Source of the DNA: Felis catus
Taxonomy: Eukaryota
Assembly (NCBI RefSeq): GCF_018350175.1
Contig: NC_058368.1
Location: 66,714,001 to 66,778,000, forward strand
DNA: 64,000 bases
Reading direction: 5' to 3'
Shown here piece after piece: positions 31,872 through 60,289 of the stretch (positions are counted from its first letter, which is position 1; each line of letters opens with the position of its first letter). The position numbers were made by a program, and so were the translations under genes. A model generated the notes under the pieces. It saw nothing but the letters and a program-made list of their open reading frames with translations. It was not told the origin of the DNA and did no database searches.

Positions 31872-32774
31872 AAAACTTCCAGCCTTTTCTCTTCCCTCCC
31901 AATCTCTTCTGTCTTCCTGGCAGATCTTAAGTCTTTGAGCAGTGGTGAGAAAGAGTATGTCTCTGGTACAACTTGGGCAGGGATGTTGGTAAGTGGATGG
32001 GCTAGTGAAATTCTAGTGAGGATGATGAGTTTTTACATAATCTCACAGGTTGTAAAAGTCTATCTGTGGGCTCCATATGTAGGTGTTTTGATGTCTTTGT
32101 GGAGGATGCCAACTCCGGAATGAACCCTTACACATGCCACCTGTGATAAGAAATTGGAGAAATCATTGTGACCAAGTCAATGTCCTCTGACTTCTTGTCT
32201 TGTTCTGTGATTTGCATCCTCATGTAAAATTTCTCCATACCAGTCATAATCTCCTCGATCAGCGCATGACATGAAAAGCCTTGGCTCTCCCCACTGGTGG
32301 CCCAGGGGAATCTTGAACCCTGAGCAAGTGGCAGTGGCTTGTTCTTGGTCCCCTGGATCAGGTCCCACGGGCTGTCTTAGACTTTGGGTGAGGTGGTGGC
32401 AGTGGGGCCTCTTCGTGGCCCCCTGGAACCCCAAAGTCGCCATGAGTCCCCGGTCAGCCCGTGTCTGGCTGCATCTGTCACTCTCAATTTTATACTTTTC
32501 CTTCCTAAATCTTCATCAGGCCGCATACTTATCATACGTGATACTGATAACAACATTCATGATACTGATATTCATATCTCATCTTACTATTCTGCTTTGA
32601 AACAGAGGGAGGGTATTCCATTGGGGCCACAGGATCATGAGTGTAGAAATCACCTACTCTGGGAATTTTCAACTTTATCCAAGAACACCACAGTGAAAAG
32701 GGTTCCTTTCAGGCCACCACGGATGGTAAAAGGAAGTGTATTGGACAGACCCTTCACTAGCTTGTCTTCATCTA

Positions 32775-42331: not shown

Positions 42332-42582
42332 ATTATAATGATTTGTTCAGAAGCCTTCTCTCACACAACCTTATGACCTTCTTCAAGGCTACAATAGTGT
42401 CATAGTCTCCTCTGCACCCCAGGAGCCCAGCTCATACAGAGCGGCTGATTCCTTGTATCTGTTTAGCTATGGAAATTGCCATCTATGTGTATTCCAATGC
42501 GGAATCCAAGCTTTAGATATTGTCATTTAGGGCCCAGTTAAAAAAAAAAAATTTAAGGGCATTCTTTTAAAAATAAATTTTA

Positions 42583-43667
42583 AAAACTATAAAACTCTTA
42601 GAAGAAAACTTCTAAGTCTTTGTGACCCTGGATTAGATATAGCATCTAAAGCACAAACAGCTAATGTGTATGTATACATATACAGTGTATATATATCAAG
42701 AAAGGGAAACAACAATCTACAGAACGGAAGAAAATATTTGTAAATCTTATATCTGGTAAGGGTCTGGTATCTGGAATACACAAGGAACTCTTTCAATTCA
42801 ACAATAAAAAGACAAATAACCCAATTTAAAAATGGGCAAAGGATTTGAATAGACAAGTCTCCAAATAAGAACGGCTGATAAACACACGAAAAAATAGTCA
42901 ACATCATTAGTCATTAAGGAAATACAAATCAAGCCACAATTAGATACCACTTCATACCCACTAGAATGGCTATTAAAAAAAAAAAAGGACAATAATCAGT
43001 GTTGGCGAGCATACGGAGAAATTAAAGCTCTTGTACGTTCCTAGTGGGAACACAAATGGTGCAGCTGCGGCGGAAAATAGTTTGCTGTTTCCTCAAAAAA
43101 AAAAAAAAAATTGAAAATAGAATTACCATACGATCCAGCAATATTAGTTTTGGAGATATACCCAAAAGAATTGAAAGCTGGGTCTCAAAGAGATATTCAC
43201 ACATTCACGTTCATGGCAGCGTTACCCGCAATAATCAAAAAGTGGAAGTAACCCAAGTGTCCACTGACAGACACATGATAAACAAAACATGGTAAATCCA
43301 TACAAGGGAACAGTATTCCGTCTTAAAAACGAAGGACATTCTGACAAACGTTATAAACGTGGCCAAACCTTGAGGTCATTACGTTAAGTGAATGAGCCAA
43401 TCACAGAGGACAAACGCTGTACGACTCCCTTTAGGTGAGGCACCTGGAACGATCAAATTCACAGAAGTTGCAAGCAGAATGAGGGTTCCTAGGGGGGAGG
43501 ATGAGAAGGGGGTGAGGCGGTGTTTGATGGCACGGAGCTCAGTTTTGCAAGAGGGAAGAGTTCTGGGTGTTGGTTGCACAACAACGTGAGTATACTTAAT
43601 GTCACTGAACCGTCCACTGAAGATGGTACCTTTTATTTTATGTGCCTTTTATCACAATTTAAAAAAG
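42583..43667 (+). mobile_element. L1MB-type element: ORF2 3' end plus 3' UTR, degenerate
   Basis: aaaactataaaactcttagaagaaaac, aatgggcaaaggatttgaatagaca, agataccacttcatacccactagaatggcta, ends ttttatcacaatttaaaaaa. Confidence 0.93.
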
Positions 43668-43987: not shown

Positions 43988-44383
43988 CCTCCCTCGCCCG
44001 TAATGGACTGTCTTCGGCCTGTCTTTTGCTGTAATCAAAGTTCGACTCAATAGTAGCAAATGGCTCGAGTGTTCTGAGGCTCTGCTTGACAGGCTATAAT
44101 TAGAAACACTTTACTTGACCTTTTATAAGCCATGATCCCCCAACAAAATGGTGCCGAATCACATTTAAAAAACCCTCTTGCATCTTTTGTGAGTGCGGGC
44201 AAGATTACAGGATACTTTTATTTTAGAATAATTACACTGTGACCTTCAGAGTTATTTGCAAAGGTCATATTCTCTTCACATACCCTTGATTTCCTTTCAG
44301 TTTTTCCTTTTGTCCCACCAGACATAAATTTAGCGAAGGAAGAAGAAAGAGAGAGTATTTTTTCTGTGGATGAAAACTGAAGA

Positions 44384-44740
44384 AGATAGTTCAAAGTCCC
44401 CATAGGCGCGCGGAGGGCTGTGGGCTATGATAGGCTATTTTCTACCATTTAGCTCCTGCATTATCACTGCTCCTTTTTCTTCATTATTCCCCACTTATCA
44501 CATGCAGCATCACTGCAGAGCCCAAATAGAGAGTTGTAATTACCCAGCTGCCACCTGATAGCGCCCCTTCTATCATCTTTATCTCACGAGGCCTTGCTGT
44601 TTCATCATTGGATAAGACTTGCCCATGGCAATGCCTGCGATAGTGCATCTCACAGATACATTTAACGTTTACTCATTTATCGCAGAAAAATGCTGAACCC
44701 GGGCCATTATGAGACGCACTTGCCAGTGTATTTGTTCGGT
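44384..44740. promoter_or_regulatory. GATA-site cluster, candidate enhancer
   Basis: Seven WGATAR matches (44384, 44428, 44461, 44495, 44556, 44570, 44579) and four near-matches; E-boxes at 44545 and 44552; FOX-like gtttac and tatttgt. Confidence 0.7.
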
Positions 44741-44814
44741 AAGGTTACTGGTCCTCCCTTCCGCAGCAGCCATTTTTTTCCCCTTTTCTTCCTGCAAACA
44801 CCCAGGCCACAACC

Positions 44815-45090
44815 GACTACGGAAAGGAAATTTTAATGGACCGGTCCGGCACCCGGAGCGCGGGGACCGCCCGCGGGTGTGGCCGGGTGCGCGCCCACGC
44901 GAGCGCGCGCGGACACCCACGCTCCGGCCGCCGAGCGCCTCACCCGCCTCGAACGCGCGCCGGCAGAGGGAGGGCCGCCCGCCGCCGTGCAGGGGCGCTC
45001 TGGCCGGGAGAAGGTGCTGCCTACCCAGACCTGCGGAAGCGTCGCCTTTTGGAAAAGGTTGGCCTGCTAGTGATTGTAAACAGCGGGGCC
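44815..45090. promoter_or_regulatory. Small CpG island
   Basis: Very GC- and CpG-dense non-repeat stretch (gcgcgc, ccgccc GC boxes) in an otherwise CpG-poor window. Confidence 0.85.
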
Positions 45091-45244
45091 AAAGTTGATT
45101 TCTTAAAAAAAAAAAAAAAAAAAAAGAAAAAAGGATGAAAACATATAATGGGCACCTCTTTGACAAATCCCTTGAGGTTTTCCTTTACTCACCATTGGGG
45201 AATATAGCCCGAGGACAAGTTTCAAGAATAAGTGATGTGTATGG

Positions 45245-45245
45245 A

Positions 45246-45279
<34 letters not shown>

Positions 45280-45292
45280 CGCGCGCGCACGC
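45245..45292. repeat. (TG)n(CG)n alternating purine-pyrimidine tract
   Basis: About 12 TG units run directly into about 9 GC units. Confidence 0.95.
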
Positions 45293-45424
45293 CACACGTG
45301 CACTCTCGTTTTGCTTAGTGCAACTAGAGGGATGGACTTATATGCACATTTCTATTTGACCTGGGATAATTTACCTACACTGTGGCCACTGCCCTCGTTA
45401 AAACCTGTTGGAAATTCGAAAGGG

Positions 45425-45738
45425 TATTTTTTAAAAGCTTTATCGAAGTATAGATGATGTACCAAAAAAACTTGTACATATTTAATGTACACCGTTTGAT
45501 GAGTTTGGACATGCACACACCTGATTCTGTCAACACAATCAAGGCAATAAACCTATCCATCATCTCCAAAAGTTTCCGTATGTCCCCTTTTGTGCTGGTT
45601 GTGCTAAACACGTTGAATGTGAGATCAACACTCTTAGCAAATTGGTAAGTGTGCAATGCGTGTTGTTAACAGGCATTGTGTTGTGCAAGAACTCTCGAGA
45701 ACTTATTCATCTTGCATACCTGGGACTTTTTACCCTTT
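45425..45738 (-). mobile_element. L1MA/MB-type 3' end
   Basis: catatttaatgtaca...ttgatgagtttggaca...cacaatcaaggcaataaac...gaacttattcatcttgcata. Confidence 0.88.
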
Positions 45739-46671
45739 GGAAAACAAAGGGTTATTTTTTACTCTGGGAGAAAGGCCTATTAGGAAGAAAAGAAATTCTA
45801 GGGTTAATTTTCATAACACCTTTATATATATATATACATATATATATATACACATTTAGTATTAAATGGCCTTAAATTAACAAGTGAGAAATGAAATGAG
45901 CAAAAATTATTTACATTCTTTTTAACAATGGCAGTTTCATTTAAGCACACTTTAAAAAAACCTCAATGAAAGTTCATTTTCATAAATAACGACTTGAAAA
46001 ATCCTCCTTTGGCTTGTCAGACAATTTTGCAGGCAACCCAGCCCATTATGGAAAAGGCAGATTTGTGCGTGTGGTTGGACATCAGTGAGGGAGAAAATGT
46101 GTTGCTCACGATACCAACAAAAGGTGCACATTTCCCCAGTGTCGGATTTAAAATGTGGTTTTACAGATGTGGTTTTCAAAATTACATCCTTCATGCATAT
46201 TTAATCTGGCTTGATTAATTTACTTTATGGGATGATCTATTTAAAACAACAAACAGTAATTCCTCATAATAACCACTCCCTGTCAGCTCACTGTGAATGC
46301 ATTCACATACACACTGAGGGCAATGTACCTGTACACAATTTCCCAGCTTGTTGAAAGGCTCTTCTGTGCCAGTATTTGATTTCTTTTTGATATCAAGATA
46401 AATTAGAATTGTGCCTTGCACTTCTGTAAAACCATTCTTTCACAGAGTGGCTCTGAAGGAAACGGGCATGAGAAATAAAACCTACTACAGATGTGTACAG
46501 TTTTATTATTTATTTGAAAATTTTTTACTTTTTTTTTTGTGTGGACACAGTAGCTACAAATAAAGTTATGGCGACAATCAGGGTTGTGAAAGGGAGAGTC
46601 TGCATATTTTTAAAAATACTTGGAGTCTGAGACTCATATAGAATAAGGATGAATTTCATTGAATCCAGTTT

Positions 46672-53742: not shown

Positions 53743-53973
53743 CTATCATTAAAAAAAGATTAACACTTGACATGATAAGAAAGTCAGATCAACAAAAACC
53801 TTTGATCCAGGAGATAGGATAAGATAGAAAGTCACAGGCTTCTATGGGCCAGACATATAACGAGGCTGACTTCTAGGAAAATGCCTGCTGATGACTCAGT
53901 TTATCTGTAAAAGACAAATCAAGCAGAGACTAATCATGAAAGAAATGGATTAATAGTGTTAAAGATTAGATAG
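53743..53973. promoter_or_regulatory. Second GATA-site cluster with an AP-1 site, candidate enhancer
   Basis: WGATAR at 53743, 53773, 53812, 53822, 53901, 53968; TGACTCA at 53892. Confidence 0.45.
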
Positions 53974-54321: not shown

Positions 54322-54701
54322 ACCTAATCATGCACAAACATCACAGCTGCTTATTATTTTCTCAATTATCAAATTTTAATTTCATACCCCTTGTGTATTA
54401 GTGAGGGTTTAGCTTTGTTCCTTCCCAGCAGTTATGATTTAAATCAGCTCGGAGCCACAAACTGTAAGACCTTTCCCATGTTTGCTCTTTTTGTCATTCC
54501 CTTTGTTTCACCATGGCAGTTAAAGGGAAAATCCTGCGGATGAAATGAGGCCTGGTGCTTGTCTTTTTCTGGGCTAAAGAGCAGGAAGCCTGGAAAGACT
54601 GGCTCCCCCACAGCTAGGTTGGGGGAATAGCACCTTACAGGAAGGCTGGATGGTGTTGGTACCGAGAAAAAAAACCAAGCTGTGTCCAAGGATCTAATGG
54701 T

Positions 54702-57313: not shown

Positions 57314-57710
57314 GGGGCACCTTGGTGGCTCAGTCAGTTAAGCATCTGACTCTTGATTTCAGCTCAGATTATGATCCCAGGATCGTGGGATTGAGCCCAT
57401 GCACTGAGCATGGAGCCTGCTTAAGATTCTCTCTCTCAGAGCACCTGGATGGCTCAGTTGGTTAAGCGTCTGACTTGGGCTCAGGTCATGATCTTGGAGT
57501 TCGTGAGTTCGAGCCCTGCGTCGGGCTCTGTGCTGACAGCTCCGAGCGTGGAGCCTGCTTCTGATTCTGTGTCTCCCTCTCTCCCTCTGCCCCTCCTCCT
57601 CTCTCTCTCTCTCAAAAATAAACACTAAAAATTAAAAAAAAAAGTTTTTCTCTTTCTCCCATTGCCTCTGTCCTCCACTTGCACACTCTCTCTTTCTAAA
57701 AAAAGAAAAA
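57314..57710 (+). mobile_element. Older CanSINE split by a nested SINE
   Basis: Head at 57314-57437; (CT)-rich body and A tail resume at about 57642-57710. Confidence 0.85.
57438..57641 (+). mobile_element. CanSINE nested in the preceding SINE
   Basis: Complete head-to-tail copy between aagattctctctctc and aagtttttctctttctc. Confidence 0.92.
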
Positions 57711-57730
57711 CAATTTAAAAACCAAATTTA

Positions 57731-57963
57731 GGGGCGCCTGGGTGGCGCAGTCAGTTAAGCGTCCGACTTCAGCTCAGGTCACGATCTCGCGGTCCGTGAG
57801 TTCGAGCCCCATGTTGGGCTCTGTGCTGACAGCTCAGAGCCTGGAGCCTGTTTCCGATTCTGTGTGTCTCCCTCTCTCTCTGCCCCTCCCCCGTTCATGC
57901 TCTGTCTCTCTCTGTCCCAAAAATAAATAAACGTTGAAAAAAACTTTTTTTTTAAATAAAAAG
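57731..57963 (+). mobile_element. CanSINE
   Basis: 15-bp TSD taaaaaccaaattta at 57716-57730 and 57964-57978. Confidence 0.97.
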
Positions 57964-60289
57964 TAAAAACCAAATTTAAATACTTTTCAAAGCATTTTGT
58001 CATAATTCTCTAATTTTCTCAGCATCTGGAGGTGATTCACCCATTCTGATTCCTAATTTGGTTACTTGTGCCTTTTCTCTATTATTTATCAGGCTAGCTA
58101 GTGAATTATTTATTTATTCCCAGCTTTCTGCACATATTATTGATATATAGTACATGAAAGTTTAAGGTGTACAATGTGATGATTAGATACATGTATATAT
58201 TGCAAAAAGATTACAAGAATGTTAGATAACATATAGTAACTTATTAGCTTTCTCTTTTTTCTCATATAAGTAATTATTTGACTTCTTGTATAAAAGGTAC
58301 AGCACGATGAATTCTAGTCAAATTTACACTGATAATTGGAAAAAGTCTTAGCAACAGGTGAGATTAAGAGACTAAACACTCCAAGAAGATACCATTTGGG
58401 CTCAAGTGGCTCCAATGGGAATATAGCCATCCAGAGCTTAGCTGCTTTCTCCAAAAGACAAATATGTAACCAAATAAGAATGTCTGGTTTGGAATTGAGT
58501 ACGGACTTGTAGCTGCTCATGGAATAGACACACAAGATTCACTTTCAAATCAATTTTTTTTACCCTTTTTTTTTCCTTATTCTCTTCCGTGCCTCACCTT
58601 TCCATCTTCTTTGGCCATGCCACTCATCTTTCCCACGTATCAAATGGAACTACAAGAAAAGTTTGTAATCAGCTATTTTATAGAATCCTAGGTATACTGC
58701 TAAAACACATTCAACCTGAAGATTCTGTATAATTTTCATCTGGGGATGAAAGGGAAAATTTAAAAAAACTACACAGTGGGTGAGGGTGAGGAACAGGGAA
58801 ACCGTGCTCTGGGTTTGCAGCTTCCGTTCTGGGAGTCAGAAGGCAATCATTTGCTTTTCATTTGGCCTCCAGGAGGCAGTGAGCCTCACCCTCAGGGCTA
58901 TAGTGTTGGAAGTTATGCGAATGATGAGCAGAAGTAAGGTTCCTGTGAGTGACTTACCAGTAGTTACCATTTCAAAATTATTGTTTCGTCATAAATACAG
59001 TATCTCATTTAGTTCTTACAGCAACCGAGCCGGGAAGGTATTCCCATGTTTGCGGTTAGGAAAATGTGAATTACCTGTGTAATAAAGGTAGTCAAATAGT
59101 CAGGCGTCAGCACCAGAAAATGATCCCAATTCCTGCTGACTTTAAAATTGTTCTTCTTTTTTTTTTTTTTGTCGTGCTGTATCGTCTTCCTGAGATCCAG
59201 GAAGGACTGGTGCTATCGTGACAGTCATGTAGACGGGGCCATCACTAGGATCTCTGCAAATCCCATTGACAATTATCAATACGCTGTTATTTGTTGTCGC
59301 TCGGATAGACTCAGCCTTAGTAAAAAGTTACCTGTGTGTGTATGATTCAGAAATTGTAACTATCCCATGACAATCTATATATACAGTGGACCTACAGCCA
59401 TGACTGTTAGATACCATCGACTGGGGAAATGGCTCTTGACATTTTTGTCCATTTACCACCAGCTTGCCTCACCACAAGCCAGACGGAAGGCTCTGTTCTC
59501 TCACACAGAACTGTCAAATTTTATTATATAATCTTTGGTGCCATTGACTTCAATTTTTACTAGAGTCAGAGCAACTAGTACTTCCAGTGCTGGATCTACA
59601 ACATTTTGCATAATTTCTGGCGCATTTGACACTAAGTATATGTATAGATATCTCAATGGGTCAAATATTTTTACAGATTCCAACCACTCTTTGAGATCAA
59701 ATGGGAAAGGCTTAAATTTAGCTTTCTAGTTCATGTATTATATGAAAAATAACTGAAAGTAATCCTTTCACACTAGAGACATTTATGATCATTTACAAAC
59801 TATAAACCGATTAAGAAGAAATGCAATAATCACTTTTAATTTGGAAAAATCCAATCTGTAGAGGAAGACTAACTCAATATGACATAAACTAAAGTCTTTG
59901 CCAGCTGGGGACCGTTTTCCATCCAAACTGTTAGAGCGTACAAGAGCTTACTAATCCAAAAGCATCTACCAGTTTAGTAAAACCACGTCAAGTCTCAGCC
60001 AGTGAAAGAGCTGACATGAGCTTTGTACTGGAATTGTGTATCTGCCAAATCTGTGAATGATACCAAATTGATCATCTTTTCCCTACTGCTTCGAATGTCA
60101 CCTTATCCTATACCAACGCTCCACGTGTCTTTGAGTCTCTTTCCAGACTTTGTTCTGGTCCATTGCTTTGTGTATTCATACTAATTATAGTATCTTGATA
60201 ATATATTTTAATATCTTGTAGGACTTGTCCCTCTTCTTTATTAAACATTTTAAAGGTTTTCTTGAGCATTTTTAAACATTTACTTTCTA

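Follow-up and report, generated by a model that had tools for sequence, protein, structure and literature searches.

Among described regulatory elements, the closest in layout to the one reported here are the poised enhancers, about 80% of which have a non-methylated CpG island at most 3 kb away; the island shields the neighboring module from methylation and boosts its contact with CpG-rich developmental promoters, and orphan islands attract Polycomb when inactive (bioRxiv 10.1101/2020.08.05.237768). Homotypic arrays of GATA sites are best described for GATA1: multiple WGATAR motifs are found in 67% of the segments bound by this factor vs 31% of the unbound ones, and TGATAG is the variant it favors least, with 93 of 734 motifs in bound and 14,524 of 76,273 in unbound segments (Zhang et al. 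2009, PMC2790884). In a c-Kit element, CGATA is bound by GATA1 only when unmethylated (PMC7244756). Finally, the conserved-element landscape of SOX21 spans more than 450 kb (PMC526512); two of its elements are located inside Abcc4; in fish, several direct expression to the ear, brain or lens (PMC3480646).

The locus analysed here, within a 64-kb stretch of cat DNA (the window), shares something with each of these systems (Table 1). Like the poised enhancer PE Sox1(+35), it shows a motif cluster beside a short CpG island, apparently distant from coding genes and presumably within the domain of a developmental SOX gene; unlike PE Sox1(+35), its module is of the GATA/AP-2 type, and whereas poised enhancers are defined by p300, H3K4me1 and H3K27me3 in stem cells together with deletion and knock-in, the present element is delineated from sequence alone (Pachano et al.). 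As in GATA1-occupied segments, WGATAR sites are many (seven here; bound segments average 2.3) and GC boxes of the SP1/KLF type lie nearby; unlike in these segments, where AGATAA makes up 40% of the motifs, only one of the seven sites is AGATAA and three are TGATAG, and the E-box-GATA composite at TAL1 spacing known from homotypic GATA enhancers is absent (PMC2790884). Two CGATA words at the island edge recall the methylation-sensitive c-Kit element, which differs in that one site of a haematopoietic gene was tested there, whereas ours are predicted sites (PMC7244756). The conserved enhancers of the SOX21 locus, many of which are active in the brain, ear, lens or skin of fish, would belong to the same landscape; in contrast to our element, they are not described as GATA arrays in the parts of the two reports drawn on here, and the core of one of them, CNE6, has no exact match in the window (PMC526512, PMC3480646).

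We give about an even chance to the reading that the GATA/AP-2 binding module and the orphan CpG island together form a distal enhancer, with SOX21 as its likeliest target. This reading is favored because the GATA cluster goes beyond chance and the sole CpG island of the 64 kb starts 67 bp after its last site, and it is strengthened by the adjoining orphan island and by the presumed position of the locus in the SOX21-ABCC4 gene desert. The sequence-only reading had already proposed a developmental enhancer with a target outside the window; that proposal is retained, with the island and the desert position, neither of which it had used, as its backing, and its logic of E-box and FOX partners is not supported. 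No feature indicates blood, heart or endoderm specifically.

Table 1. Features of the GATA/AP-2 module and the adjoining CpG island (positions in the window)
Feature	Position	Strand	Remarks
Left flank	44090..44270		TAATTA 44097, 44229; nuclear-receptor half-sites AAGGTCA 44116, 44240, 44261
WGATAR array	44384..44584		AGATAG x1, TGATAG x3, TGATAA x2, AGATAA x1
AGATAG	44384	+	
TGATAG	44428	+	
TGATAA	44461	-	
TGATAA	44495	-	
TGATAG	44556	+	
TGATAG	44570	-	
AGATAA	44579	-	
Homeodomain-type TAATTA	44537		
E-box CAGCTG	44545		
Weak CTCF-like match	44548..44566	+	12.2 of 29 bits, fourth-best in window; covers CACCTG and first TGATAG of core
E-box CACCTG	44552		last two bases shared with TGATAG 44556
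Core GATA triplet	44556..44584		inward-facing TGATAG-N8-CTATCA (44556-44575), TTATCT 3 nt later
GATA near-matches at island edge	44610..44682		GGATAA 44610+, CGATAG 44638+, AGATAC 44654+, CGATAA 44677-
AP-2 (TFAP2) candidate site	44620..44630		full GCCNNNGGC match, consensus match 44621-44629
Orphan CpG island	44651..45200		only one in 64 kb; GC boxes and CACCC box

The window contains 135 WGATAR sites, about one per 474 bp, which fits the expected rate of about one per 500 bp, and the seven sites of the array, as well as the four near-matches, were all found where the sequence-only reading had placed them. No further WGATAR occurs around the array in 43990-44383 or 44585-46390. At least seven sites in 201 bp were obtained in 0.07% of 20,000 uniform scatterings of 135 sites (0.02% with another seed) and in none of 150 third-order Markov simulations, and a control by dinucleotide shuffling of 44000-45000 put the P of the GATA cluster at 0.0014. 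The array is the densest WGATAR cluster of the window, with a P of about 0.0002-0.001 that holds per single window, the choice having been made among very many windows. Clustering of WGATAR at this place exceeds chance for this motif. The next densest cluster holds five sites in 201 bp (six over 231 bp, 53743-53973) and is within chance (P about 0.09). WGATAA sites alone do not cluster (three in 201 bp, P 0.89).

Could the CpG island be real and the GATA cluster next to it a chance arrangement without GATA-dependent function, chosen as the most striking cluster of the window? As a multiple-choice control, 1023 hexamer families of the same shape were scored with repeats masked. WGATAR ranked 18th, and 16 of the 17 families ranked above it peak inside the CpG island. 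Once families with CpG cores, with low-complexity cores or with their peak in the island had been removed, 523 were left, among which WGATAR came first at ~1e-3, the runner-up, at 9e-3, being about 8 times less extreme. About 0.5 equally strong clusters are expected if any of these 523 families were eligible, a figure which speaks for chance, as do the mostly weaker GATA variants in the array and the partner motifs (FOX words, E-box spacing), which stand at or near chance level. However, GATA is among the few well-known motifs, so that far fewer than 523 tests were effectively made; the lag of the runner-up, the improbable adjacency to the only island, and the near-matches, which prolong the signal to 10 GATAR in 300 bp (P 5e-5), argue in the same direction. 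The probability of such a cluster this near the island was put at 7e-6 (300 bp) to 7e-5 (3 kb), a rough and post hoc estimate of joint chance. On balance, a chance arrangement seems to us unlikely.

The make-up of the array differs from that of GATA1-bound segments. AGATAA/WGATAA, the preferred variant, is not enriched, and the mix of variants does not differ significantly from that of WGATAR in the whole window. Moreover, WGATAR presence predicts little: in one erythroid line, about 0.7% of the WGATAR-bearing 500-bp segments, and 211 of the 21,233 segments with a second WGATAR, were bound by GATA1 (PMC2790884).

The inward-facing pair of the core triplet is the only one of WGATAR sites at most 12 nt apart in the window; the TTATCT had been described as following at once, and a gap of 3 nt in fact separates it from the pair, which itself is present as claimed. 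One outward-facing pair within the same distance is found window-wide, at 32529-32550. The two E-boxes announced just upstream are there, and form the only double E-box of the CAGSTG type in the window. In TAL1-GATA composites, a full E-box lies ~7-9 nt upstream of WGATA. This identity was rejected here: the gap between CAGCTG and TGATAG is 5 nt and CACCTG overlaps the GATA site, so that the proximity of E-boxes stands and the TAL1-GATA spacing is absent. What is present are mere half-sites (TG-N7-WGATA), at 44428 and 44495 and at about chance frequency.

Between the array and the island, the palindrome TTGCCCATGGCAA (44619-44631), within it TGCC-CAT-GGCA, had been read as X-box-like. The strict RFX X-box consensus is GTNRCC-N0-3-RGYAAC. 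The palindrome differs from it at both outer bases, and the window holds no strict match; the RFX identity was thus rejected. A better fit is offered by the AP-2 consensus GCCNNNGGC (PMC9038197), which has nine matches in the window, and TGCC-N3-GGCA is found at this place only. FOX-like words, by contrast with the partner sites claimed in the sequence-only reading, are at background in the array region (1 vs 1.1 expected). In the left flank, which possibly belongs to the same module as the array, three of the 15 AAGGTCA half-sites of the window are gathered; outward-facing half-sites, TGACCTT ... AAGGTCA at 44240-44267, enclose a TATTTGC word.

The CTCF-like match over the E-box/GATA core, at 12.2 bits, and a further pair in the island (13.9 and 13.0) bring in a different kind of element, repressive or architectural: a Polycomb-bound orphan island with sites for TRPS1 or a GATA repressor, or a CTCF anchor. 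TRPS1 binds GATA sites, and the recruitment of Polycomb by inactive orphan islands, mentioned above, also points this way. For the CTCF variant, however, the core match is mismatched at two high-information positions, ~1.8 CTCF-like matches as good as 12.2 bits are expected by chance per window, and the convincing match of the window lies elsewhere. This strongest match, 58863-58881 (+; 20.4 of 29 bits), is a possible loop anchor 14 kb to the right of the island. We regard a repressive or architectural role as improbable.

An island was called over more than 200 bp with GC above 50% and CpG observed/expected (o/e) above 0.6; the segment 44740-45060 (321 bp) reaches GC 0.68 and CpG o/e 1.07. 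Of 1274 windows of 300 bp, six qualify, and all are found here (starts 44651-44901). The core of the island (44800-45050) is 74% GC with a CpG o/e of 1.13, vs 0.34 window-wide, and the last WGATAR is well inside the 3-kb distance used for poised enhancers. Such CpG retention (o/e 1.1 vs 0.34) suggests that the island is hypomethylated in the germline. At the right edge of the island, a (TG)13 directly joins a (CG)n tract (45246-45290), which is Z-DNA-prone, and a CACGTG E-box follows just past it at 45295. The left edge carries two CGATAR words, out of eight in the window; they account for two of the 11 CpGs in the GATA-rich stretch singled out by the earlier reading (P about 0.004, post hoc).

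These two words also lend something to the view that the array is a relic, left either by an ancient interspersed repeat or by decaying CpGs along the island shore (CGATAR to TGATAR), and possibly exapted. Indeed, five of the seven array sites begin with T, and the two CGATAR that remain are those closer to the island. The T-first share is however not significant (P 0.14), the excess of TpG/CpA is ordinary, 33% of windows being as high, and the array has no second copy in the 64-kb window. We therefore rate a relic as very improbable. Internal tandem duplication as the origin of the array was ruled out separately, flank identity being 0.26 vs 0.27 for the null, with no tandem array at this place.

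Another possibility is that an unannotated or non-coding transcript has its promoter in the island, with the array as a proximal or first-intron module. In one variant, the array would lie entirely in a first intron of 580 nt on the minus strand, bounded by a donor at 44943 and an acceptor at 44364; the donor CGG|GTGAGG scores 8.3 bits and the acceptor 11.8 bits. GC boxes, ETS and YY1-like words are present in the island, which is moreover overlain by the top-scoring exon candidate of the window, 44945-45100 (-), although the acceptor score of this candidate is due to a poly-T tract. The region 43990-45240 is wholly or partly matched in 20 of 24 sequencing runs (6 RNA), and five RNA runs contain 27-76% of its sampled words, but matches in RNA runs may reflect DNA. 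The ORFs of the island are without Pfam match, and its length is small by the standard of gene promoters. Besides, a promoter would be compatible with enhancer action and not exclusive of it. We hold the promoter explanation to be rather unlikely.

The window as a whole is mammalian non-coding DNA of ~41% GC with 32 SINE-like stretches, which we take to be of feliform carnivore type. Its 143 ORFs of at least 75 aa and its exon candidates gave no sign of a coding exon: none of the 96 sequences searched (92 exon candidates and 4 ORFs) matched Pfam, an outcome that carries little weight where exons are short. On the minus strand, the array has an exon-like stretch on either side, at 44284-44363 and 44945-45100. 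The Rfam scan of the window returned one tRNA-like match only, inside a SINE. An L1-like 3' end lies at about 42560-43660, with a CpG o/e of 0.7-0.9 in 43001-43600, high for an old repeat, and three SINE pieces stand in series at 57314-57943, one apparently inserted in another. Pattern scans for an orthologue were run mainly on microbial collections, which are unlikely to contain one; they yielded 29 loci (metagenome contigs, 0 and 4; genome contigs, 0 and 1; viral contigs, 24), none aligned over more than 29 bp, as by chance.

Where is this element located, and what would it act on? Three interpolations, made with assumed human coordinates, place the window at hg38 chr13 94.93, 95.00 and 95.04 Mb; with scale factors between 1.0 and 1.25 the range widens to 94.7-95.45 Mb, and the error on the locus is about 0.1-0.2 Mb. 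Since the interpolated position falls there and an ABCC4-type C-terminus (ETAL-stop) is not encoded in any of the six frames of the window, the best-fitting location is probably the gene desert between SOX21 and the ABCC4 3' end, a placement which depends on the assumed coordinates. The likeliest target would be SOX21, roughly 250-300 kb away, with ABCC4 second. The SOX21 promoter presumably carries a CpG island. SOX21 lies within a 0.5-Mb sub-TAD, and rearranged domain boundaries in the region cause eye disease by enhancer adoption (bioRxiv 10.1101/2023.12.11.571097). In trophoblast stem cells, Sox21 serves as a marker and is associated with super-enhancers (PMC10193302); in midbrain progenitors it overlaps GATA2 (PMC5952183). 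The expression reported for ABCC4 is gastric and megakaryocyte (PMC9135761; PMC3698506).

The invariant core of CNE6, the one SOX21 element that was compared, has no exact match anywhere in the window; one match with two mismatches was found at 54574, and 6 of 100 shuffles do as well. The desert corresponds, as we assume, to mouse chr14:118.3-118.49 Mb. In the table of Tal1/Gata2/Gata3 targets of the mouse brainstem (PMC12431775), none of the features in the part covered here falls in that interval, and the table lists features of the Sox21 gene. A literature search of mainly open-access papers turned up no report of a GATA-array enhancer in the SOX21-ABCC4 interval; the element may well be catalogued already, for example in VISTA or ENCODE. 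An ultraconserved element (uc.355) and a VISTA enhancer (hs341) presumably lie beside a CpG island ~50 kb past the 3' end of ABCC4; such a position would agree with the layout and is not counted as evidence; uc.355 maps to 13q32 (PMC3002293). Against the enhancer reading we count the low predictivity of the motif, the single AGATAA among seven sites, the unclustered WGATAA, the ~0.5 clusters expected, the Tal1/Gata2/Gata3 table and the error on the locus.

If the locus is indeed a distal enhancer, its two parts could have distinct tasks. The left part (~44380-44690), with its mostly sub-optimal GATA sites, one AP-2 site, two E-boxes and one homeodomain site, would be opened cooperatively where a GATA factor is abundant. 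Pairing of GATA2/3 with TFAP2A/C is a feature of trophoblast and placodal ectoderm. Because of the AP-2 site, we propose this pairing as a guess for the factors concerned, which would act in trophoblast, in non-neural or placodal ectoderm, or in otic epithelium. The orphan island would keep the module unmethylated, aid its contact with a CpG-island promoter of the same domain, and so may relay the signal to SOX21. A more specific version, which we consider improbable and put forward as speculation, is that of a methylation-gated long-range SOX21 enhancer: the weak GATA array would join the island through the two CGATAR and the AP-2 site, methylation spreading over the island edge would silence the last GATA sites and raise the dose of GATA2/3 and TFAP2 that is needed, and, in trophoblast or in placodal/otic ectoderm, the island would act as the module's tether to the SOX21 promoter at a distance of 250-300 kb.

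The layout discussed here is already well known, and what is gained is one more annotated element and no new principle. If our reading is true, this element would be a specific enhancer tying GATA/AP-2 input to SOX21, a gene of trophoblast stem cells, inner ear and midbrain, or to the drug transporter ABCC4.
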